From Thermodesulfobacteriota bacterium (lineage in GTDB: Bacteria > Desulfobacterota_D > UBA1144 > Nemesobacterales > Mycalebacteriaceae): DNA of 64,000 nucleotides. The notes below the pieces were generated by a model, which was not told where the DNA came from, ran no database searches, and saw only the letters and a list, made by a program, of their open reading frames with translations. Shown piece by piece: positions 6,216 to 40,706 of this stretch. Where the stretch lies: positions 1 through 64,000 of the forward strand of contig OZ242184.1 of NCBI GenBank assembly GCA_965205855.1, written 5' to 3'. Every line of letters begins with the position of its first letter. Positions within the stretch are counted from its first letter, which is position 1. The translations under genes and the position numbers were made by a program.

Positions 6216-9200
6216 ATGAACACTATACGTTTCTGTACTACAATCGTCCTTGTCCTTATGATCTCGGTAACTGGGGCCAGTGCAAACCATGAAAATGAAA
6301 GTGGAGGGAGTCCTGGCCCACCACACTTCATCACGGGACATGTGGCCTTCACCGGTGTCCTGGAGGAGGATGAGTTGCTGACGGCGGATCTCTCTGACTT
6401 GGAAGATGATGATGGTTTTGGTGAGTTTGTTGATTGGGAATGGGCTTACGTCACCGACACATCGTACCTTGCTATCCCGGGAGCGACCTCTAACACCTAC
6501 ACCCTGACCCAGCAAGAGGTGGGACACCGGATGGGCCTGGAAGTAACTCATAGAGATCCCCAGCTTGGTGATAGGCGTATAGTTAGCTTTATTCCCCGCG
6601 AGACGGTGGGCAATGTCAATGACCCTCCCACCGGTGAGGTGACGATTGACGGTATCCTGCGCGAGAATGAGGAACTGATGGCGAATACCTCTTCCCTTGC
6701 CGATGAGGATGGTCTTGTAGGTGAGGATGGTATGCACGTCGGGTTCTTCTATCGATGGAATACGCGCGACGGGAACACGGACACGCCGATTCCCGGCGCG
6801 ACCCTGCGCACCTACACCCTGACCCAGGCCGAGGTCGGCAAGTCCATCACCGTGACTGTCGACTACGTCGATCGCTGGACCACGCTTGAGAGCGTAACCA
6901 GCGCTGCCACTGCGGTGGTGAGGGGTTCCACTGAACCTGTTGCCGATGCCGGACCAGATCAGCGCACCGTCAAGGGTACCACCGTCACCCTTGACGGCAG
7001 TCTCAGTTCCGTACCCAGTGGCGACGCCCTGGCCTATTCCTGGACGCATACGAATGCCGGCATCACGCTGAACGGTGCTAATACCGCCAGCCCAAGCTTC
7101 ACCGTGCCGGCGGATCTGGTGGGGGACCTGATGGGGGAGGGGAACTTGACTTTCATCCTGACGGTGACCGACACCGGAGGTGTAGAGTCAACACCCGACA
7201 GCGTCGACATACTCATCAGACCACTGTTCCGAAGCACAGTGAACGACCAGGCCTATACTGAAAATGTGGAGATAGCCAATCTGGGGTTGCCCGATGCTCG
7301 CGGTCGGGGCAAAACCTACAGCTTGATCAGGGAGGGATCGCTTTCAGACCTTCCGGGTGGGCTGACATTCAATGCAAGTACACGCACACTGTCCGGCACC
7401 CCGGACGAAATTGGCGTGTTTAACCTAATCTACACCGTAACGGATAGTGACGGCGGAACCGATTCACTGAGATTTCGTATCACGGTGATCAACGCCGCCC
7501 CCACCGCCGATGCTGGTCCAGATCAGAGGGTGGGCAAGGGCACAGAAGTCACCCTTGATGGCACTGGCAGTACGACAAGCCCTCCAGGCCGCACGCTGAC
7601 ATATGCCTGGACGCAGACTCGTGGCACCACGGTGTCTTTAAACAGTCCTACAGCAGCACAGCCAACTTTCACCGTTCCAAACGTGATACCGACAACTGAT
7701 CCGTCCTCGCTTGATTTCAGCCTGGTCGTCACTGACGGACAGGTCTCGTCCAGCAACGAGGAAACCGTCAGAATCTTTGTCAGACCGCTGTTTCGTACAA
7801 CCATTGCCAATCAGACCTATAGCGAGGACACTGCAATTGACAATCTGATTTTGCCCACGGCACTGGAGAGACCGGGGGATACTAATACCTATGGACTGGC
7901 TTCTGTGCCCGCTGGTCTATCCTTTGATCCTGCTGCCCGCACACTGTCTGGTACGCCGACAATACCTGGAACGTTTGACTTGACCTACACCGCAACGGAT
8001 CAGGACAGTAGAACCGATTCACTGGAATTTAGTGTCACCGTTAGCAACGCCAATGACCCGCCCATCGGAGTACCGACCATTAACGGCACCGCGACACAGG
8101 GAGAGGCACTCACGGTGGACACCACAGGCATTAGCGATGCCGACGGCCCCAGCGCTTTAGACTTCTCCTATCAATGGCTGGCAGACGGAAGTAATATTAG
8201 CGGCGCGACCTCTGCGACCTACACCCTGACACAGAACGAGGTGGGACAGATGATCACCGTGACCGTCAGCTACACCGATGCCGGCAGCACCGACGAGAGC
8301 CTGACCAGCGCTGCCGTCGGGCCGGTTAGCAACGCCAATGACCCGCCCACTGGCAGTGTGACCATTAGCGGCACCGCGACACAGGGAGAGGCACTCACGG
8401 TGGACACCACAGGCATTAGCGATGCCGACGGCCCCAGCGCTTTAGACTTCTCCTATCAATGGCTGGCAGACGGAAGTAATATTAGCGGCGCGACCTCTGC
8501 GACCTACACCCTGACACAGAACGAGGTGGGACAGATGATCACCGTGACCGTCAGCTACACCGATGCCGGCAGCACCGACGAGAGCCTGACCAGCGCTGCC
8601 GTCGGGCCGGTTAGCAACGCCAATGACCCGCCCATCGGAGTACCGACCATTAACGGCACCGCGACACAGGGAGAGGCACTCACGGTGGACACCACAGGCA
8701 TTAGCGATGCCGACGGCCCCAGCGCTTTAGACTTCTCCTATCAATGGCTGGCAGACGGAAGTAATATTAGCGGCGCGACCTCTGCGACCTACACCCTGAC
8801 ACAGAACGAGGTGGGACAGATGATCACCGTGACCGTCAGCTACACCGATGCCGGCAGCACCGACGAGAGCCTGACCAGCGCTGCCGTCGGGCCGGTTAGC
8901 AACGCCAATGACCCGCCCATCGGAGTACCGACCATTAACGGCACCGCGACACAGGGAGAGGCACTCACGGTGGACACCACAGGCATTAGCGATGCCGACG
9001 GCCCCAGCGCTTTAGACTTCTCCTATCAATGGCTGGCAGACGGAAGTAATATTAGCGGCGCGACCTCTGCGACCTACACCCTGACACAGAACGAGGTGGG
9101 ACAGATGATCACCGTGACCGTCAGCTACACCGATGCCGGCAGCACCGACGAGAGCCTGACCAGCGCTGCCGTCGGGCCGGTTAGCAACGCCAATGACCCG

Positions 9201-12200
9201 CCCACTGGCAGTGTGACCATTAGCGGCACCGCGACACAGGGAGAGGCACTCACGGTGGACACCACAGGCATAAGCGATGCCGACGGCCCCAGCGCTTTAG
9301 ACTTCTCCTATCAATGGCTGGCAGACGGAAGTAATATTAGCGGCGCGACCTCTGCGACCTACACCCTGACACAGAACGAGGTGGGACAGATGATCACCGT
9401 GACCGTCAGCTACACCGATGCCGGCAGCACCGACGAGAGCCTGACCAGCGCTGCCGTCGGGCCGGTTAGCAACGCCAATGACCCGCCCACTGGCAGTGTG
9501 ACCATTAGCGGCACCGCGACACAGGGAGAGGCACTCACGGTGGACACCACAGGCATTAGCGATGCCGACGGCCCCAGCGCTTTAGACTTCTCCTATCAAT
9601 GGCTGGCAGACGGAAGTAATATTAGCGGCGCGACCTCTGCGACCTACACCCTGACACAGAACGAGGTGGGACAGATGATCACCGTGACCGTCAGCTACAC
9701 CGATGCCGGCAGCACCGACGAGAGCCTGACCAGCGCTGCCGTCGGGCCGGTTAGCAACGCCAATGACCCGCCCACTGGCAGTGTGACCATTAGCGGCACC
9801 GCGACACAGGGAGAGGCACTCACGGTGGACACCACAGGCATTAGCGATGCCGACGGCCCCAGCGCTTTAGACTTCTCCTATCAATGGCTGGCAGACGGAA
9901 GTAATATTAGCGGCGCGACCTCTGCGACCTACACCCTGACACAGAACGAGGTGGGACAGATGATCACCGTGACCGTCAGCTACACCGATGCCGGCAGCAC
10001 CGACGAGAGCCTGACCAGCGCTGCCGTCGGGCCGGTTAGCAACGCCAATGACCCGCCCACTGGCAGTGTGACCATTAGCGGCACCGCGACACAGGGAGAG
10101 GCACTCACGGTGGACACCACAGGCATTAGCGATGCCGACGGCCCTGACACTTTGACCTTCTCATATCAATGGCTGGCAGACGGAAGTAATATTAGCGGCG
10201 CGACCTCTGCGACCTACACCCTGACACAGAACGAGGTGGGACAGATGATCACCGTGACCGTCAGCTACACCGATGCCGGCAGCACCGACGAGAGCCTGAC
10301 CAGCGCTGCCGTCGGGCCGGTTAGCAACGCCAATGACCCGCCCATCGGAGTACCGACCATTAACGGCACACCGACACAGGGAGAGACACTCACGGTGGAC
10401 ACCACAGGCATAAGCGATGCCGACGGCCCCAGCACTTTGGACTTCTCCTATCAATGGCTGGCGGATGGAAGTAATATTGACGGTGCTAACTCTGAAACCT
10501 ACACCCTTACACAGAGCGAGGTGGGACAGAACATCTCCGTTACCGTCACATACACCGATGATGGCAGCACCAACGAGAGCCTTACCAGCGCTGCCGTCGG
10601 GCCGGTGACTAACGCCAATGACCCGCCCATCGGAGTACCGACCATTAACGGCACCGCGACACAGGGAGAGACACTCACGGTGGACACCACAGGCATTAGC
10701 GATGCCGACGGCCCCAGCACTTTGGACTTCTCCTATCAATGGCTGGCAGACGGAAGTAATATTAGCGGCGCGACCTCTGCGACCTACACCCTGACACAGA
10801 ACGAGGTGGGACAGATGATCACCGTGACCGTCAGCTACACCGATGCCGGCAGCACCGACGAGAGCCTGACCAGCGCTGCCGTCGGGCCGGTTAGCAACGC
10901 CAATGACCCGCCCACTGGCAGTGTGACCATTAGCGGCACCGCGACACAGGGAGAGGCACTCACGGTGGACACCACAGGCATTAGCGATGCCGACGGCCCC
11001 AGCGCTTTAGACTTCTCCTATCAATGGCTGGCAGACGGAAGTAATATTAGCGGCGCGACCTCTGCGACCTACACCCTGACACAGAACGAGGTGGGACAGA
11101 TGATCACCGTGACCGTCAGCTACACCGATGCCGGCAGCACCGACGAGAGCCTGACCAGCGCTGCCGTCGGGCCGGTGACTAACGCCAATGACCCGCCCAT
11201 CGGAGTACCGACCATTAACGGCACCGCGACACAGGGAGAGACACTCACGGTGGACACCACAGGCATTAGCGATGCCGACGGCCCCAGCACTTTGGACTTC
11301 TCCTATCAATGGCTGGCGGATGGAAGTAATATTGACGGTGCTAACTCTGACTCCTACACCCTTACACAGAGCGAGGTGGGACAGAACATCTCCGTTACCG
11401 TCAGCTACACCGATGCCGGCGGCACCAACGAGAGCCTTACCAGCGCTGCCGTCGGGCCGGTTAGCAACGCCAATGACTCTCCCACCGGAGTACCTGTCAT
11501 TAACGGCACACCGACACAGGGCGCGGAACTCACCGCCGACACCACAGGCATAAGCGACCCTGACGGCCCTGACACTTTGACCTTCTCACATCAATGGCTC
11601 GCAGATGGAAATAATATTGACGGTGCTAACTCTGAAACCTACACCCTTACACAGAGCGAGGTGGGACAGAACATCTCCGTTACCGTCACATACACCGATG
11701 ATGGCAGCACCAACGAGAGCCTTACCAGCGCTGCCGTCGGGCCGGTGACTAACGCCAATGACCCGCCCATCGGAGTACCGACCATTAACGGCACCGCGAC
11801 ACAGGGAGAGACACTCACGGTGGACACCACAGGCATTAGCGATGCCGACGGCCCTGACACTTTGACCTTCTCATATCAATGGCTCGCAGATGGAAATAAT
11901 ATTGACGGTGCTAACTCTGAAACCTACACCCTTACACAGAGCGAGGTGGGACAGAACATCTCCGTTACCGTCACATACACCGATGATGGCAGCACCAACG
12001 AGAGCCTTACCAGCGCTGCCGTCGGGCCGGTGACTAACGCCAATGACCCGCCCATCGGAGTACCGACCATTAACGGCACCGCGACACAGGGAGAGACACT
12101 CACGGTGGACACCACAGGCATTAGCGATGCCGACGGCCCTGACACTTTGACCTTCTCATATCAATGGCTCGCAGATGGAAATAATATTGACGGTGCTAAC

Positions 12201-15107
12201 TCTGAAACCTACACCCTTACACAGAGCGAGGTGGGACAGAACATCTCCGTTACCGTCACATACACCGATGATGGCAGCACCAACGAGAGCCTTACCAGCG
12301 CTGCCGTCGGGCCGGTGACTAACGCCAATGACCCGCCCATCGGAGTACCGACCATTAACGGCACCGCGACACAGGGAGAGACACTCACGGTGGACACCAC
12401 AGGCATAAGCGATGCCGACGGCCCCAGCACTTTGGACTTCTCCTATCAATGGCTGGCGGATGGAAGTAATATTGACGGTGCTAACTCTGACTCCTACACC
12501 CTTACACAGAGCGAGGTGGGACAGAACATCTCCGTTACCGTCACATACACCGATGCCGGCGGCACCAACGAGAGCCTTACCAGTGATACCGTCGGGCCGG
12601 TGACTAACGCCAATGACCCGCCCATCGGAGTACCGACCATTAACGGCACCGCGACACAGGGAGAGACACTCACGGTGGACACCACAGGCATAAGCGATGC
12701 CGACGGCCCCAGCACTTTGGACTTCTCCTATCAATGGCTGGCGGATGGAAGTAATATTGACGGTGCTAACTCTGACTCCTACACCCTTACACAGAGCGAG
12801 GTGGGACAGAACATCTCCGTTACCGTCACATACACCGATGCCGGCAGCACCAACGAGACCCTTACCAGTGATACCGTCGGGCCGGTGACTAACACCAATG
12901 ACTCTCCCATCGGAGTACCTGTCATTAACGGCACCGCGACACAGGGAGAGACACTCACGGTGGACACCACAGGCATTAGCGACCCTGACGGCCCTGACAC
13001 TTTGACCTTCTCACATCAATGGCTCGCGGATGGAAATAATATTGACGGAGCTAACTCTGAAACCTACACCCTTACACAGAGCGAGGTGGGACAGAGTATC
13101 TCCGTTACCGTCACATACACCGATGCCGGCGGCACCAACGAGAGCCTTACCAGCGCTACCGTCGGGCCGGTGACTAACACCAATGACTCTCCCACCGGAG
13201 TACCTGTCATTAACGGCACACCGACACAGGGCGCGGAACTCACCGCCGACACCACAGGCATAAGCGACCCTGACGGCCCTGACACTTTGACCTTCTCACA
13301 TCAATGGCTCGCAGATGGAAATAATATTGACGGAGCTACCTCTGACTCCTACACCCTTACACAGAGCGAGGTGGGACAGAACATCTCCGTTACCGTCACA
13401 TACACCGATGCCGGCAGCACCAACGAGACCCTTACCAGCGCTACCGTCGGGCCGGTGACTAACGCCAATGACCCGCCCATCGGAGTACCGACCATTAACG
13501 GCACCGCGACACAGGGAGAGACACTCACGGTGGACACCACAGGCATAAGCGACCCTGACGGCCCTGACACTTTGACCTTCTCACATCAATGGCTCGCAGA
13601 TGGAAATAATATTGACGGAGCTACCTCTGACTCCTACACCCTGACACAGAGCGAGGTGGGACAGAACATCTCCGTTACCGTCACATACACCGATGCCGGC
13701 AGCACCAACGAGACCCTTACCAGTGATACCGTCGGGCCGGTGACTAACACCAAGAACAATAACGACGCACCCGTCGCAGTGGCGACGGCGACGCCCAATC
13801 CGGCCATCGAGGGCGATACCGTCACCCTCAACGGCAGTGCCAGTTCCGATCCCAACGGCAATGATGCGGATCTGACCTACCTCTGGGAACAGACCAGCGA
13901 ATCCGATATCAGCCTGAGTTCCACGATGGCAATCTCCCCCACCTTCACCGCGCCAATACGCCAGACGGCGGATGACGCAGAGTTGGTATTTACCCTGACC
14001 GTGACCGATTCGACAGGGCTGTACTCCATCGACACCGTCACCATCACCGTGACGGCGGATGTCTCTGTGCAAAAGACGGTTGAGACCGTCAACCGGTTTA
14101 TGGATACCCGCACCCGGCTCATTCTGGCCAACCAGCCCAATGCTTTGCGCCGGATCAATCGGTTGCAACGCGATGCTGGTGCAGAAGAGCTGAGTTTTGC
14201 CACGGGCGAGATCAACAAACTCATACCCTTTGAGTTTGAACTGAGTAGCCTCGGAACCGGGAATTACAATTTCGCCACCAGCCTGGACCAGGTCACCCGC
14301 GCCGCCAAACACCTGCAAATGATCCAAGGGGAGACAGCCACCCATGAGCGCCGACGCTTTGATGTCTGGGCTGAGGGCAGCTTCTATAAATTCAACGGTA
14401 GCGCTGGCTCTGAAGGTGATTTCGCTCTTATCTATCTGGGGACTGACTATCTGGCCTCTCCGAACCTGCTGGTGGGCGGGGTGCTACAATATGACCAGTT
14501 GAGCGACAGCAACGGTAGCTCCGACATCGAAGGCAAGGGCTGGATGGCCGGACCCTATGTGACCGCACGACTGAAAGAGAACCTCTATGTGGACGCACGT
14601 GTGGCCGGGGGTACCTCCGACAATGAGGTCACTCCGGTGGGCACCTATACGGACAGCTTCACCTCCACCCGCTGGCTGGCAGACATCAGCCTGTCCGGGG
14701 TCTTCACACAAGGTCAATGGACCCTCCAACCCAATGCCGCCCTGTCCTATCTGGCAGACAGGCAGAGTGCCTACACCAACACGCTGGGTGTCACGATTCC
14801 CGGTCAGACGGTCTCCCAGGGGCAATTCAAGGTTGGCCCGACGGTCTCGAGACAGTTCCTGGGAGGCAATGGCTGGCGCTATGAGCCCAAGATCACGCTG
14901 GATGCGATCTACAGCCATGCGAACATCAGTGGTGTCAGTTTAACAACCGCCAGGCAAGAGTATGCCTGGCGGGCGCGGGTGGCCCACGAGCTCAGCATAA
15001 CCAGCCCCGGTGGTATCGGCCTGTCACTCACCGGCATTTATGACGGCATCGGGCAAAGAGAGTTTGAAGCCTGGGGCCTGAGGCTTAATCTGAATATGAA
15101 GTTCTGA
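6216..15107 (+). CDS. Giant autotransporter adhesin (2963 aa): signal peptide, Ig/PKD-like domains, 20 tandem 95-aa repeats, C-terminal beta-barrel
   Basis: N-terminal signal; ADAGPDQ PKD-like and LSGTP Ig-like modules; tandem NDPP...FSYQWLADG...YTLTQ repeats; C-terminal region with DVWAEGS and alternating strands, ending in LNLNMKF (terminal Phe). Confidence 0.88.
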   Translation: MNTIRFCTTIVLVLMISVTGASANHENESGGSPGPPHFITGHVAFTGVLEEDELLTADLSDLEDDDGFGEFVDWEWAYVTDTSYLAIPGATSNTYTLTQQEVGHRMGLEVTHRDPQLGDRRIVSFIPRETVGNVNDPPTGEVTIDGILRENEELMANTSSLADEDGLVGEDGMHVGFFYRWNTRDGNTDTPIPGATLRTYTLTQAEVGKSITVTVDYVDRWTTLESVTSAATAVVRGSTEPVADAGPDQRTVKGTTVTLDGSLSSVPSGDALAYSWTHTNAGITLNGANTASPSFTVPADLVGDLMGEGNLTFILTVTDTGGVESTPDSVDILIRPLFRSTVNDQAYTENVEIANLGLPDARGRGKTYSLIREGSLSDLPGGLTFNASTRTLSGTPDEIGVFNLIYTVTDSDGGTDSLRFRITVINAAPTADAGPDQRVGKGTEVTLDGTGSTTSPPGRTLTYAWTQTRGTTVSLNSPTAAQPTFTVPNVIPTTDPSSLDFSLVVTDGQVSSSNEETVRIFVRPLFRTTIANQTYSEDTAIDNLILPTALERPGDTNTYGLASVPAGLSFDPAARTLSGTPTIPGTFDLTYTATDQDSRTDSLEFSVTVSNANDPPIGVPTINGTATQGEALTVDTTGISDADGPSALDFSYQWLADGSNISGATSATYTLTQNEVGQMITVTVSYTDAGSTDESLTSAAVGPVSNANDPPTGSVTISGTATQGEALTVDTTGISDADGPSALDFSYQWLADGSNISGATSATYTLTQNEVGQMITVTVSYTDAGSTDESLTSAAVGPVSNANDPPIGVPTINGTATQGEALTVDTTGISDADGPSALDFSYQWLADGSNISGATSATYTLTQNEVGQMITVTVSYTDAGSTDESLTSAAVGPVSNANDPPIGVPTINGTATQGEALTVDTTGISDADGPSALDFSYQWLADGSNISGATSATYTLTQNEVGQMITVTVSYTDAGSTDESLTSAAVGPVSNANDPPTGSVTISGTATQGEALTVDTTGISDADGPSALDFSYQWLADGSNISGATSATYTLTQNEVGQMITVTVSYTDAGSTDESLTSAAVGPVSNANDPPTGSVTISGTATQGEALTVDTTGISDADGPSALDFSYQWLADGSNISGATSATYTLTQNEVGQMITVTVSYTDAGSTDESLTSAAVGPVSNANDPPTGSVTISGTATQGEALTVDTTGISDADGPSALDFSYQWLADGSNISGATSATYTLTQNEVGQMITVTVSYTDAGSTDESLTSAAVGPVSNANDPPTGSVTISGTATQGEALTVDTTGISDADGPDTLTFSYQWLADGSNISGATSATYTLTQNEVGQMITVTVSYTDAGSTDESLTSAAVGPVSNANDPPIGVPTINGTPTQGETLTVDTTGISDADGPSTLDFSYQWLADGSNIDGANSETYTLTQSEVGQNISVTVTYTDDGSTNESLTSAAVGPVTNANDPPIGVPTINGTATQGETLTVDTTGISDADGPSTLDFSYQWLADGSNISGATSATYTLTQNEVGQMITVTVSYTDAGSTDESLTSAAVGPVSNANDPPTGSVTISGTATQGEALTVDTTGISDADGPSALDFSYQWLADGSNISGATSATYTLTQNEVGQMITVTVSYTDAGSTDESLTSAAVGPVTNANDPPIGVPTINGTATQGETLTVDTTGISDADGPSTLDFSYQWLADGSNIDGANSDSYTLTQSEVGQNISVTVSYTDAGGTNESLTSAAVGPVSNANDSPTGVPVINGTPTQGAELTADTTGISDPDGPDTLTFSHQWLADGNNIDGANSETYTLTQSEVGQNISVTVTYTDDGSTNESLTSAAVGPVTNANDPPIGVPTINGTATQGETLTVDTTGISDADGPDTLTFSYQWLADGNNIDGANSETYTLTQSEVGQNISVTVTYTDDGSTNESLTSAAVGPVTNANDPPIGVPTINGTATQGETLTVDTTGISDADGPDTLTFSYQWLADGNNIDGANSETYTLTQSEVGQNISVTVTYTDDGSTNESLTSAAVGPVTNANDPPIGVPTINGTATQGETLTVDTTGISDADGPSTLDFSYQWLADGSNIDGANSDSYTLTQSEVGQNISVTVTYTDAGGTNESLTSDTVGPVTNANDPPIGVPTINGTATQGETLTVDTTGISDADGPSTLDFSYQWLADGSNIDGANSDSYTLTQSEVGQNISVTVTYTDAGSTNETLTSDTVGPVTNTNDSPIGVPVINGTATQGETLTVDTTGISDPDGPDTLTFSHQWLADGNNIDGANSETYTLTQSEVGQSISVTVTYTDAGGTNESLTSATVGPVTNTNDSPTGVPVINGTPTQGAELTADTTGISDPDGPDTLTFSHQWLADGNNIDGATSDSYTLTQSEVGQNISVTVTYTDAGSTNETLTSATVGPVTNANDPPIGVPTINGTATQGETLTVDTTGISDPDGPDTLTFSHQWLADGNNIDGATSDSYTLTQSEVGQNISVTVTYTDAGSTNETLTSDTVGPVTNTKNNNDAPVAVATATPNPAIEGDTVTLNGSASSDPNGNDADLTYLWEQTSESDISLSSTMAISPTFTAPIRQTADDAELVFTLTVTDSTGLYSIDTVTITVTADVSVQKTVETVNRFMDTRTRLILANQPNALRRINRLQRDAGAEELSFATGEINKLIPFEFELSSLGTGNYNFATSLDQVTRAAKHLQMIQGETATHERRRFDVWAEGSFYKFNGSAGSEGDFALIYLGTDYLASPNLLVGGVLQYDQLSDSNGSSDIEGKGWMAGPYVTARLKENLYVDARVAGGTSDNEVTPVGTYTDSFTSTRWLADISLSGVFTQGQWTLQPNAALSYLADRQSAYTNTLGVTIPGQTVSQGQFKVGPTVSRQFLGGNGWRYEPKITLDAIYSHANISGVSLTTARQEYAWRARVAHELSITSPGGIGLSLTGIYDGIGQREFEAWGLRLNLNMKF
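8041..13740 (+). repeat. 20 x 285-bp intragenic tandem repeat
   Basis: The same phase (T-AGC/ACT-AAC-GCC-AAT-GAC) recurs at 8041, 9181, 10321, 11461 and 12601, and the array ends at 13741. The spacing is 1140 = 4 x 285, giving 20 units. Confidence 0.95.
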
Positions 15108-30456: not shown

Positions 30457-30601
30457 CTTCAAGGTTCCGATACGGAAAAATTACAGGGTTTGACTATACC
30501 GAAAGGCACATAATCAAGCAAGCGGAGAAAAGGGAAATTACATACCTGATTAGACATTGCTTTTTTGACACAACCGCTATTTTTTTATATTTCTAACCTC
30601 T

Positions 30602-30668
30602 GCACTTACTCACAAGTACCCGCTTGTCGGGTCTTTGATAAATGCAAAATTCTGCTTGCAGAGGAATA
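30602..30668 (+). ncRNA. Structured leader element, copy A (3'-truncated)
   Basis: GCACTTACTCACA...ACCCGCTTGTCGGGTCT...TAAAT...TCTGCTTGCAGAG GAATA, nearly identical to the 5' half of copy C; TTGACA at 30565. Confidence 0.6.
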
Positions 30669-30685
30669 GTTTAGAGGACGTTATC

Positions 30686-31168
30686 ATGAACGAAATCAAA
30701 CCAATCGCCCTGTGCTTGGCTTTATGCCTTTTGCTTACCTCGTGTCTCGCAACACCCTATCAAAAATTGGGATTTAGCGGTGGGTTTACCGAGACACAAC
30801 TTGCGCCCGATATTTTCCGTGTGAGATTTCAGGGAAACGCATTCACTTCAGGAGACCGCGCCCAAGAGTTTACTCTGTTAAGAGTATCGGAATTATGTTT
30901 TGATAATGGCTTTGCCCATTTCACCATTGGTGATGAGAGCAATCAAGTAGTTCGGCAGACGATTCAAACCGCTCCCGCAACTTCCCGCACAAGAAGTTCA
31001 AGTTATTCAAGCACAACAACCTATGAGCCTGCAAAGTTTCATAATTTCTTCAGACCGAACAGTTATATGCTGGTGCGTTGTTTCAAACAAAAGCCAAGCG
31101 ACAGATATACTTTTGATGCGGCCTTTCTAATAAGAAGTCTCAAGACCAAATACAAAATCAAGAATTAG
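30686..31168 (+). CDS. Lipoprotein, resembles the CC0125/CC1285-type family
   Basis: Lipobox LTSC followed by ATPYQK..GGFTETQL...FRVRFQGNAFTS...LLRVSEL; GAGGA RBS. Confidence 0.75.
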   Translation: MNEIKPIALCLALCLLLTSCLATPYQKLGFSGGFTETQLAPDIFRVRFQGNAFTSGDRAQEFTLLRVSELCFDNGFAHFTIGDESNQVVRQTIQTAPATSRTRSSSYSSTTTYEPAKFHNFFRPNSYMLVRCFKQKPSDRYTFDAAFLIRSLKTKYKIKN

Positions 31169-37139: not shown

Positions 37140-37775
37140 TTAAAATCTGACTTCCAATTTCGGGCCGATACTCAGTCCCCAAATATCGTCAATACTGTTG
37201 TCATTTGTCCACAGCGAATAAACAAACTGTCCGTCAATACCTATTGTTGCTCTCTCGGAAACTGAAAAACCAAATCCCAATTTTCCGACAAATGGTATGG
37301 ATGTTGTGGCACTGATTTTATCTCCGACATCGTAGAAATTTACTCCGGTTCCCACTCCAAGGTTGAACTCTACCGAACCGTTTCCGGCTTTCAGAACCAA
37401 AAGGGCTGGAAGCAGAATATGGTTTAAAGTTTCTCCGTCCACAGTAACCATTACATTAGCCCCTCCGCTTGTACCCGTGACATCAAATTTGCTTGAACTA
37501 ACTGTCCATCTTGGTTCAAATTCCAGGGCAAAACTGCTTTCTCCGAGAAAAACTCCGAGTTTGGGAGCCAGATAAAAACCGTTTTCTTTTACTTCTACAT
37601 TCGTCACGGTAACGCTACCGATTGTCAAGGAACCTTTGGAATCCAATTTTTGATAGGCATACCCCGAACTTAAACCAAAATAAGCTTTTGGCGAACCTGT
37701 CTGAGCCTTTGAAATACAAAACGGAAAACCCGTCAAAAACAATACAGAAACAGCGAGAATTAAAGATTTTCTCAT
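37140..37775 (-). CDS. Outer-membrane beta-barrel protein (8-stranded, OmpW/OmpA-like)
   Basis: Signal peptide, amphipathic strands, C-terminal LEVRF. Confidence 0.8.
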   Translation of the reverse strand: MRKSLILAVSVLFLTGFPFCISKAQTGSPKAYFGLSSGYAYQKLDSKGSLTIGSVTVTNVEVKENGFYLAPKLGVFLGESSFALEFEPRWTVSSSKFDVTGTSGGANVMVTVDGETLNHILLPALLVLKAGNGSVEFNLGVGTGVNFYDVGDKISATTSIPFVGKLGFGFSVSERATIGIDGQFVYSLWTNDNSIDDIWGLSIGPKLEVRF

Positions 37776-37812
37776 TTGAAACCTCCGTTAATTTAGACTT
37801 GCACAGCTTTAA

Positions 37813-37952
37813 GGCGCCGGGCCTTGTCCACACCAAACGAAGGTTTGAAATGTTCCCGCCTATTCCCCAACGGAAGGGATCAAGCTCCCGCTTAGTCAGG
37901 TTTTCTATTTAGCAGGAGACCCGACAAAGGGTCTCCTTCGTTCAATGTGGAC
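37813..37952 (-). ncRNA. Structured leader element, copy B
   Basis: Minus strand: GUCCACAUUGAACGAAGG / CCUUCGUUUGGUGUGGAC terminal stem (3 G-U pairs), core ACCCUUUGUCGGGUCUCCUGCUAAAUA, tail AAGGCCCGGCGCC; promoter TTGACT-N18-TATAAT at 37988-37959. Confidence 0.75.
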
Positions 37953-39941: not shown

Positions 39942-40196
39942 TATTCTATCTCCTTGTTATTAATATAAAAATTCGGTTTATTGCCTCTCACCAAATAGGC
40001 ATTCTATCACAAAAAATTTTAATAAGAAACAGAAAAAAAGGGGACTTATACAAAGTTACCCACTGACTTCATAATTGAACCGCTTGGGGTCGTGCCAAAA
40101 CCAACCTATACAAGAACCGTGATAAATGCCATTTCCCTTGATTTGTTCGACATTTTGACCTTGACAGGGCAGCCACCCCTGTATATTTTGATCTTC

Positions 40197-40307
40197 GGCA
40201 CTTACTCACAGATACCCGCTTGTCGGGTCTCTGATAAATAGAAAACTCTGCTTACAGAGGAATAATCAGGCTTCTCAATCTGTTGGGTAAGTGCCAAGAC
40301 CCGGCGC
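40197..40307 (+). ncRNA. Structured leader element, copy C
   Basis: GGCACTTACTCACAGAT / ATCTGTTGGGTAAGTGCC terminal stem, core ACCCGCTTGTCGGGTCTCTGATAAATA, tail AAGACCCGGCGC; promoter TTGACA-N17-TATTTT at 40161-40189. Confidence 0.75.
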
Positions 40308-40337
40308 TTTGCGCCCAACCATGAGGAGGTGGTAATT

Positions 40338-40706
40338 ATGGTCAAAAATGTAAAAGAAGTGGGGACGAAGATTGTAATTTGTTTGCTAATTGTTTGTGTG
40401 GTAACAAGTTGCGGCAGGATAGCATCACCTGTCAGTTCTACAATACTGGGAGATAAGGTGCTACCCTGCGAGACTATCAGTTTAGAGATAGCCGATAATA
40501 ACAAAGCTATCAGTGAATTAAGGGGTGAGGTAAAAGGTAGAAGGGCGAAGAATATCATTCTCGGCATTACTGGCTTTTTCTTGATTGTTCCGCTTTTCTT
40601 TATGGACTTTGGAAGCGCGGCGGAGACGGAAATCATTGCTTTCCAAAAACGCAATAGCGCGTTGAAGCGTCTTGCGGGTTCAAGGGACTGCGAAGCAACT
40701 TATTGA
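40338..40706 (+). CDS. Small lipoprotein, hypothetical
   Basis: Lipobox VTSC, internal hydrophobic segment, two further Cys; GAGGAGG RBS. Confidence 0.72.
   Translation: MVKNVKEVGTKIVICLLIVCVVTSCGRIASPVSSTILGDKVLPCETISLEIADNNKAISELRGEVKGRRAKNIILGITGFFLIVPLFFMDFGSAAETEIIAFQKRNSALKRLAGSRDCEATY

Follow-up and report, generated by a model that had tools for sequence, protein, structure and literature searches.

By following a conserved RNA element through a 64,000-nt stretch of a Thermodesulfobacteriota genome (positions 1 to 64,000 of contig OZ242184.1, hereafter the window) and through its relatives, we found that the element always forms a 5' leader, in most cases that of a gene for a lipoprotein or a surface protein, and that it probably acts as a switch regulating cell-surface protein genes. 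Its helices with their conservation and covariation, the complementarities between its strands and its gene context are observed directly. We propose an exchange model, which in our judgement stands at about even chances, in which the leader would adopt two competing folds, one built on a long helix (P1) with a local hairpin (PL), the other on a helix between a conserved core and a 3' tail (core:tail) with an alternative hairpin (hairpin 2).

The copy described first (copy C) lies on the forward strand, in the 5' untranslated leader that precedes a lipoprotein gene. A promoter-like site (TTGACA-17-TATTTT, 40161..40189) has the end of its -10 hexamer 7 nt 5' of the first P1 base. The 5' strand of P1, called "a" (40197..40213), is placed by the minimum-energy fold and by covariation, and constitutes a lineage-specific 5' arm with which the transcript is predicted to begin. 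It is followed by ACCCG (40214..40218), the 5' strand of PL with CGGGU (40224-40228) as its partner, and by the core UGUCGGGUCU (that is, TGTCGGGTCT; 40221..40230), which overlaps the 3' strand of PL and is also the 5' strand of the core:tail helix. Hairpin 1 (40231..40269) consists of P2 (40231-40235 with 40265-40269) around an inner hairpin (40246-40250 with 40255-40259) and contains the conserved loop stretches AAAUA and GGAAUAA. Downstream of it, the J segment and the inner portion of the P1 3' strand can form hairpin 2 (40270..40292), which is predicted by the fold of the 5'-trimmed RNA and is possible in copy C only with P1 at least partly open. The P1 3' strand "d" (40278..40295), located by covariation, is separated by a single A from the tail AGACCCGGCG (40297..40306), which supplies the 3' strand of the core:tail helix. 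A small hairpin, GGCGC-UUU-GCGCC (40303..40315), also draws on the 3' half of the tail and makes a third competitor. Then come a Shine-Dalgarno site (GAGGAGG, 40323-40329) and a lipoprotein ORF of 122 aa including the stop, with its ATG at 40338 (40323..40706 for both), which has no Pfam family.

The two pairings that a sequence-only reading of this DNA had assigned to the core, a local one with ACCC (40214-40217, here extended to ACCCG at 40214-40218) and one over 10 nt with the tail at 40297-40306, were confirmed in their coordinates and letters. The same holds for the topology, since the core lies inside P1 and the tail outside, which makes the core:tail helix a pseudoknot relative to P1. 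That picture of P1 was incomplete, in that its 3' strand also pairs with the J segment and, in many copies, with the ribosome-binding region.

The exact core is present four times in the window, at 30625 (+), 37917 (-), 40221 (+) and 53602 (+), in the same context each time. By itself the 10-mer is unspecific: the window has seven matches at one mismatch or fewer where 3.3 would be expected, and the rest of the genome holds several exact matches that are unrelated to the element. By contrast, a model built from the genome's five full copies (R1) found six copies of the element in the 1,401,274-bp genome (E 6e-25 to 7e-4), two full ones of which lie outside the window, so that the whole element, unlike its core alone, is specific in the genome. 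Copy B (37812..37952, reverse strand) has its core at 37926..37917, its tail AGGCCCGGCG at 37824..37815 and an insertion in hairpin 1; it is preceded by a promoter-like site (TTGACT-18-TATAAT) and heads a 211-aa ORF resembling secreted outer-membrane proteins (37775..37140). Copy D (53577..53715, forward strand), with its core at 53602-53611 and its tail AGGCTTGGCA at 53703-53712, is followed by a broken DNA-methylase-like ORF. As had been claimed, all 10 positions of the B and D tails keep a Watson-Crick or G-U pair with the core despite their substitutions. Copy A (30597..30685, forward strand; core 30625-30634; 28.8 bits with R1) is a 3'-truncated copy of the C type that retains the 5' arm, PL, the core and hairpin 1, lacks the P1 3' strand and the tail, and abuts the Shine-Dalgarno site and the ATG (30686) of a 160-aa lipoprotein. 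The core had been called invariant, which is right within this genome, whereas the exact 10-mer occurs in 32 of 75 related copies.

To follow the element further, we used R1, which matched 34 of 101 related genomes, and a structural model (R2) made from a 13-sequence seed alignment (A5), the 5' ends in the MAFFT alignment (A4) being out of register for P1. R2 matched 35 of 120 genomes of the phylum, namely 5/5 in family f1, 26/37 in f8, 2/5 in f3 and 1/33 in f2, and gave no match in 39 genomes of five other families of the phylum. A motif scan with one genome per species returned 18 stretches, all from Candidatus Dadabacteria or Thermodesulfobacteriota MAGs except for one titled Poribacteria; a BLAST search of one related element against plasmids gave no match. 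A Shine-Dalgarno site and a nearby downstream ORF on the same strand accompany 55 of 67 distinct copies, with the start codon mostly 27-60 nt from the tail. The 12 copies lacking a Shine-Dalgarno site together with an ORF of 40 aa or more were left out of the context counts, as were six more with the start codon more than 70 nt away or an ORF shorter than 60 aa, which leaves 49. The downstream products begin with signal peptides, and 25 of the 49 have a lipobox-like motif. A Pfam family was assigned to 9 of 45 downstream proteins, including OMP_b-brl (two), N_methyl, PEGA, Ank, RTX (two) and YadA_head, and DUF2085 was found on one downstream product in this genome. These genes are coherent only as encoding exported or surface proteins, a context that fits a general factor better than a pathway metabolite.

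We then looked at the helices in an alignment of 76 matches, 68 of them distinct, that was aligned with R2 and is therefore fitted to the nested structure P1, PL, P2 and P3 (A6). First, 96.6% of 1925 alignment cells are paired in these four helices, against 73.6% after shuffling, and 446 cells are changed on both sides against 114.5 (0/500 shuffles). This effect far exceeds what the fitting alone could give; the permutation counts, here as below, overstate significance because related sequences are not independent. Second, covariation is seen at all 17 P1 pairs, and the duplex of each a strand with its own d strand (-21.7) is much stronger than with d strands of other copies (-6.0; 0/5000). 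Third, P2 occurs as CUG/CAG, CCG/CGG, CCA/UGG and GCG/CGC, and P3 as CCC/GGG, GCC/GGC and CCU/AGG. Finally, 92.5% of the PL cells are paired and the PL duplex reaches -5 kcal/mol or lower in 65 of 67 copies; in L071, a double change (ACCCU/AGGGU) keeps PL and breaks a core:tail pair.

For the core:tail helix, we used an alignment fitted to it (A3). There, 94.9% of 719 cells are paired, and 92.2% of 677 cells remain so on A6, which is fitted to the rival nested structure, whereas sliding the partners by 1-3 columns leaves only 26-55% of cells paired. Within the clade, pairing is not above the shuffle control (113/500 on A3, 167/500 on A6) because both strands are conserved; four and five of the 10 pairs, respectively, show changes on both sides (18/500 and 3/500). 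Adding 22 metagenomic relatives gave 91 distinct rows (A7, also fitted to the core:tail helix), on which the helix exceeds the shuffled control in paired cells (95.1% versus 88.4%), in cells altered on both strands (46 versus 13.4) and in covariation score (0.351 versus 0.210), with 0/500 for each. The tail purines vary between A and G opposite U and stay G opposite C on A6, with A at tail position 2 solely opposite U. Compensatory core/tail variants include GGGCUU/GAGCCC, GGGGCU/AGUCCC and UAUCGGG/CCCGAUG. The first pair, of U1 with position 10, is open in about one third of the copies, and the helix is therefore effectively of 9 bp. The sequence-only reading had staked this helix on tail variants of further homologues; these keep pairing in 92-95% of cells, with mismatches in L071, L035, L030, L024 and L074. 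Together, these patterns of sequence variation argue that the core:tail helix is real and conserved, and it probably forms in a functional state.

How the two sets of helices relate was addressed by folding. The full-length minimum-energy folds of copies C, B and D all contain the long P1 (-41.6, -63.9 and -54.6 kcal/mol; z -4.5, -5.4 and -6.9). When the same RNAs were trimmed to just 5' of the core, they folded into a three-way junction closed by the core:tail helix and containing hairpin 2 (z -2.7, -2.1 and -2.3), and at least 7 of the 10 core:tail pairs formed in 60 of 67 distinct copies treated in this way. We refer to P1 plus PL as fold Y, in which the tail would be free or in a small downstream hairpin, and to the core:tail stem plus hairpin 2 as fold X, in which the 5' arm would be wholly or partly released. 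Enforcing the core:tail helix in the full-length RNA costs a mean of 11.9 kcal/mol, and fold X, being less stable than fold Y by that amount, would need help or removal of the 5' arm. The J:d duplex that makes hairpin 2 is also specific to each copy (own -4.91, non-own -2.80; 0/5000), and the same comparison gave no complementarity signal between J and the 5' arm. So, by these duplex comparisons, strand d has at least two partners, both kept by selection.

These results bear on a simpler reading, in which only the nested fold works, as a 5'-terminal stabilising stem-loop, and the core:tail helix and hairpin 2 are relics of sRNA-Xcc1, an RNA family discussed below, or the tail is kept for other reasons. 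It would agree with the nested fold being the energy minimum by about 12 kcal/mol, with P1 starting at the predicted transcription start, with core:tail variation that does not rise above shuffles within the clade, and with copy A, which has neither d nor tail and yet is followed by an intact ORF. We nevertheless consider it quite unlikely, since the tail is conserved as much as the core across 68-73 distinct copies from several genome families, its variation obeys pairing (A/G only opposite U), at least four compensatory variants are independent, and hairpin 2 complementarity follows each copy's own d, though d covaries with a.

A second question is whether the core:tail helix could be added to P1 rather than replace it. 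The linker between P1 and the core is 7 nt in copy C (40214-40220) and about 10 nt in most copies. The stacking of the knot on P1 that had been suggested is at odds with A-form geometry: a linker of 7-10 nt would have to span 17+10 bp, about 76 Å, so that coaxial stacking on the full 17-bp P1 does not appear to fit. Two crude energy sums were made, one for a folded-back form and one for a form that keeps only outer P1, and the minimum contiguous outer P1 for inclusion was 11 bp and 14 bp, respectively. Leaving out any penalty for the pseudoknot, the folded-back form, with P1 intact and the core:tail helix added, is 6.8 kcal/mol lower than the nested fold (54 copies); the knot and hairpin 2 on the outer 5-11 bp of P1 lie about 5.5 kcal/mol above it (47 copies). 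By this crude sum, the core:tail helix could be added to an intact P1 at no net cost before the penalty, and P1 therefore need not open.

We weighed the sequence-only reading in the form that P1 stays intact and that the core toggles between its local hairpin, with the tail in a downstream hairpin of its own, and a true pseudoknot with the tail, stabilised by a ligand or protein. Besides the conservation of the core:tail helix and the two sums just given, this reading draws on what follows the tail. The tail is paired downstream at a mean fraction of 0.64 in the unconstrained ensemble of the 49 copies, and a core-like GYCSG repeat lies 3' of it in 22 of them; this pairing has a mean z of -1.1 (below -1 in 23/49) and an own versus non-own p of 0.06, which we take as moderate support for a tail:downstream hairpin. 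ACCCG, core, tail and repeat would then follow a 1:2/3:4 versus 2:3 logic. However, the linker geometry, as reasoned from A-form helices, allows only the folded-back or partial-P1 forms, the copy-specific complementarity of d to J and to the ribosome site is left unexplained, and relatives without the 5' arm, which use core:tail as an ordinary closing stem, are not accounted for. A static P1 with a toggling core is therefore unlikely, if still a serious contender, and exchange between whole folds is likelier than a knot added to a static P1.

The exchange model gives strand d a role at the ribosome-binding site, and the transcript start matters to it as well. In 48 of 58 related copies (minimum contiguous outer P1 of 8 bp for this count), a -10-like hexamer ends 6-7 nt 5' of the first P1 base, and the transcript is therefore predicted to begin at that base. 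Against the downstream leader, d pairs better with its own (-9.83 kcal/mol) than with that of other copies (-8.72 kcal/mol; 1/5000), a small effect that is absent in 22 of 49 copies. The best d duplex lies over the Shine-Dalgarno site in 27 of the 49 and in 14 of the 20 with duplexes at or below -10 kcal/mol. Such duplexes reach -15.3 kcal/mol in copy B, where GGAGG is covered, and -14.9 kcal/mol in one copy outside the window, and in L040 a 12-bp d match crosses the start codon. In copy C, the best downstream partner of d is GCCCAAC, 18-26 nt 5' of the start codon (-11.3 kcal/mol), which misses the Shine-Dalgarno site.

Two other arrangements at the ribosome site were considered and rejected. 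First, plain masking of the Shine-Dalgarno site that differs between folds found no counterpart in silico, where accessibility from the Shine-Dalgarno site to the AUG did not differ between the two folds (0.50 and 0.46; p = 0.18, 49 copies), a result that also weighs against the exchange model. Second, direct pairing of the 5' arm with the ribosome site was rejected with an own value of -5.5 against a non-own value of -6.3 (p 0.999) and 4986/5000 in a second control.

By searching Rfam, we asked whether the element is already known. At gathering thresholds, the window contains two tRNAs only, and at E up to 10 nothing relevant was found in 40100-40400, with copy C giving no match to RF02221 (sRNA-Xcc1); neither search matched any riboswitch family. 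For the self-cleaving role that the sequence-only reading had kept in play, no ribozyme family was matched, whether in the gathering-threshold search of the window or in the search near the element that allowed E up to 10. A conserved complex fold is all that suggests a self-cleaving ribozyme or an antisense-sensing element; with sRNA-Xcc1 as the sole family matched in related loci and no specific complementarity of the 5' arm to the ribosome site, we regard either as extremely improbable.

Of nine related loci, eight gave an RF02221 match exactly at the element (model positions 1-87; 30.3-39.7 bits), and this genome's two copies outside the window scored 30.5 and 30.3 bits; all of these are below the gathering score of 53 bits. 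In the alignment, core and tail fall in the model's 9-bp closing stem, hairpin 1 (AAUACAAUACCCG..GGG.AAUAAG) is matched almost letter for letter, and the model's second hairpin aligns to the J segment and the inner half of the P1 3' strand. The hairpin 1 internal loop of the family (AAUACAA.ACCC...GGGGAAUAA) is found in the related loci, where P2 and P3 covary; copy C has a substituted inner hairpin (CUCUG/CAGAG) flanked by the retained AAAUA and GGAAUAA stretches. The similarity is mutual but weak: in the reverse direction, R1 picked up 13 of the 50 canonical phage loci (E up to 1), each time at the element. Five bridging metagenomic loci (L227, L209, L228, L222 and L201) have both a full-length R2 match and a score above the RF02221 cut-off. 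By these sequence matches, the element is a distant, sub-threshold relative of sRNA-Xcc1, and by the curated test it is not a member. The 5'-arm design, with its long P1, capping hairpin, core:tail helix and downstream core repeat, is also present in metagenomic contigs of other composition, namely L215 and, with core GGUCGGGUGG and tail CCACCCGGCU, L212, L223 and L233.

Canonical sRNA-Xcc1 was then examined for its context. Its hairpin 1 motif was found in over 101 stretches from viruses or proviruses, and all 18 phage loci tested score 63.6-77.5 bits with RF02221. A Shine-Dalgarno site and an ORF lie downstream of 51 of 68 distinct canonical elements (median 42 nt), and in 51 of 51 the best duplex of hairpin 2 and the junction strand with the downstream leader covers the Shine-Dalgarno site; this duplex is stronger with the element's own leader (-20.2 kcal/mol) than with others (-16.0 kcal/mol; 0/5000). 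The downstream proteins are of antirepressor type in 20 of 26 cases (AntA, P22_AR_N/C, KilA-N, Bro-N, ORF6N, Phage_pRha). As a separate observation, 4 of the 18 canonical loci lie beside isrK and C4 RNAs.

In the accessible parts of the literature, sRNA-Xcc1 is described as common in prophages and integron cassettes and is treated, as in Rfam, as a trans-acting sRNA. In integron cassettes of Xanthomonas it was placed 5' of symE (preprint 10.1101/2025.06.18.660453), and in APSE phages it was located before a gene for an ORF6N protein. The example found first, from Xanthomonas campestris, was reported as an RNA of 88 nt whose ends were mapped and which gave a Northern band near 100 nt (PMC2996969). 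For the family, two additional covarying pairs are recorded in Rfam 15 (PMC11701678). Our search of this literature, which covered openly readable main texts, found neither a cis or leader role nor a variant with a 5' arm. Relative to the known sRNA-Xcc1 family, the new features are the added 5' arm, the association with surface-protein genes and the cis setting within one phylum.

The X. campestris precedent raises the prospect that our leader is likewise processed or terminated after the tail into a stand-alone trans-acting RNA of about 90-115 nt. The 5'-trimmed RNAs do fold into a compact junction, and some copies, such as L012 and L041, have a U-run after the tail. Against this, the copies examined lie 20-60 nt 5' of a start codon and its Shine-Dalgarno site on the same strand, most have no U-tract following the tail (5 of 75 copies, in which core or tail could not be clearly anchored, were dropped from this survey), and the complementarity to the ribosome site of the element's own gene points to action in cis. 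We therefore hold a trans-acting product to be very unlikely.

Returning to the exchange model, the family core would be a three-way junction whose closing stem is the core:tail helix, with hairpin 1 (P2/P3) bearing the conserved AAUAYAA / GGRAAUAAG loop and hairpin 2 being variable. The arm added in this lineage would begin at the transcription start with strand a, of 17-19 nt, which would pair with d (the 3' half of hairpin 2 and the junction strand) to give the long P1, with ACCCG capping the core in PL. Since d is also complementary to the ribosome-binding region, strand a may be an anti-sequestrator that holds d off that region. In fold Y, the 5' end would be buried and the ribosome site free, with expression presumably on; in fold X or upon loss of the 5' arm, the junction strands would mask the ribosome site and the 5' end would be exposed, with expression presumably going down. 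Fold X might be favoured by a ligand or protein at the conserved hairpin 1 loop, or by 5' processing. From the helices and complementarities described above we infer that both folds are used in living cells, which way they regulate, and that there is an effector. As for direction, the earlier proposal that the knot locks an ON state found no support, and the analogy with the canonical relatives suggests the opposite.

More speculatively, and with well under an even chance, the sRNA-Xcc1 junction could be the sensor of an undescribed class of cis switch, responsive to a ligand or a protein, with which phages gate antirepressors; this phylum would have recruited it with a 5' arm for a lipoprotein and surface-protein regulon, the competition of P1/PL with core:tail/hairpin 2 serving as its platform. 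A widespread RNA filed as a trans-acting sRNA appears, here and in phages, as a leader whose strands compete for the ribosome-binding site of the following gene. The variant in the window displays this competition very clearly: its 5' arm, J, P1 3' strand and tail, like the ribosome site, can each pair in more than one way. The element would be a predicted controller of many envelope proteins in a poorly known, streamlined phylum, and a defined construct of 110-150 nt could help to assign a function to the entire sRNA-Xcc1 family.

Known leader systems share parts of this design. Translational riboswitch platforms work by sequestrator/anti-sequestrator logic and classical attenuators by a scheme of 1:2, 2:3 and 3:4 pairings. 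Like such switches, the element has ordered, mutually exclusive segments, both in ACCCG/core/tail/downstream repeat and in a/J/d/ribosome site; unlike them, one of its exchanges crosses P1 with pseudoknot topology and most copies have no U-tract after the tail, and no leader peptide or terminator was identified for it. It also combines covarying conserved structure with mutually exclusive helices, as generically expected of a riboswitch, ligand aside. SAM-II and preQ1 are H-type pseudoknot riboswitches, and in these as in the element a 3' tail pairs back into the loop of an upstream helix; the element differs in its enclosing helix of 17 bp, its 1-nt link to the tail and its link of 7-10 nt to the core. 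The ompA leader is a 5'-terminal stem-loop that stabilises its mRNA. Stem-loops of this type resemble the element in that its helix starts at the predicted first transcribed base and precedes envelope-protein genes, whereas its stem encloses a conserved junction with alternative pairings. Compared with sRNA-Xcc1, the element adds the 5' arm, which makes a P1 of 16-20 bp with the 3' part of the junction, and it is chromosomal and multi-copy in one phylum, before lipoprotein, outer-membrane and surface protein genes. Both have in common a three-way junction with a closing stem of the type ..GUCGGG.. / ..CCCGGC.CC, hairpin 1 loops that are nearly the same (AAUACAAUACCCG..GGGGAAUAA), a hairpin 2 that varies and a position 5' of a same-strand ORF, and in many canonical sRNA-Xcc1 copies the 5' strand of the stem also has a complementary stretch upstream.

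Copy A of the structured leader RNA (window positions 30597-30685, forward strand) is a leader of the same type as copy C that carries a natural 3' deletion. It retains the 5' arm, the hairpin that caps the core, the core itself and hairpin 1, the first of the two hairpins of the junction, and lacks both the 3' strand of the long helix P1 and the tail. Hairpin 1 directly abuts the Shine-Dalgarno site and the ATG at 30686, the start of a lipoprotein of 160 aa. In copy C (40197-40306, forward strand), we also noticed a terminator-like site on the minus strand at 40246-40259 (CTCTGTAAGCAGAG followed by a T-run), which corresponds to the inner hairpin of this copy read from the other strand and is probably a side effect of it.

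Downstream of copy D (53577-53715, forward strand), window positions 53716-54300 hold a DNA-methyltransferase-like ORF (MFKNQTIWTGDNLPIMRG...LDPFP), which is interrupted by a stop and resumes in a different frame. Two related loci outside the window, L036 and L010, carry behind the leader an ORF of this kind that looks intact. Thus, envelope proteins are not the sole class of genes found downstream. Elsewhere in the window, at 8040-13792, a 285-nt unit is repeated head-to-tail in 20 copies that are 76-100% alike; since the unit equals 95 codons, the array is presumably the gene for a giant repeat protein.

The long 5' arm helix and the core-capping hairpin are also present in four metagenome-contig relatives that do not belong to the clade of the window (L215:6343-6463, L212:237-346, L223:4415-4523 and L233:5668-5779; GC 0.50 and 0.64-0.68). 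In these loci, the pairing between core and tail shows compensatory changes, and L215 has a core repeat downstream as well.

Canonical sRNA-Xcc1 (Rfam RF02221), a distant relative of the element, is very frequent in (pro)phages (viral contigs L099-L178), and isrK and C4 RNAs adjoin it in 4 of the 18 loci scanned. Antirepressor-type genes start downstream of it at a median distance of 42 nt, and their Shine-Dalgarno region is complementary to the hairpin 2 loop and junction strand of sRNA-Xcc1 in all cases (51/51). This canonical phage "sRNA" looks like a cis-acting leader.
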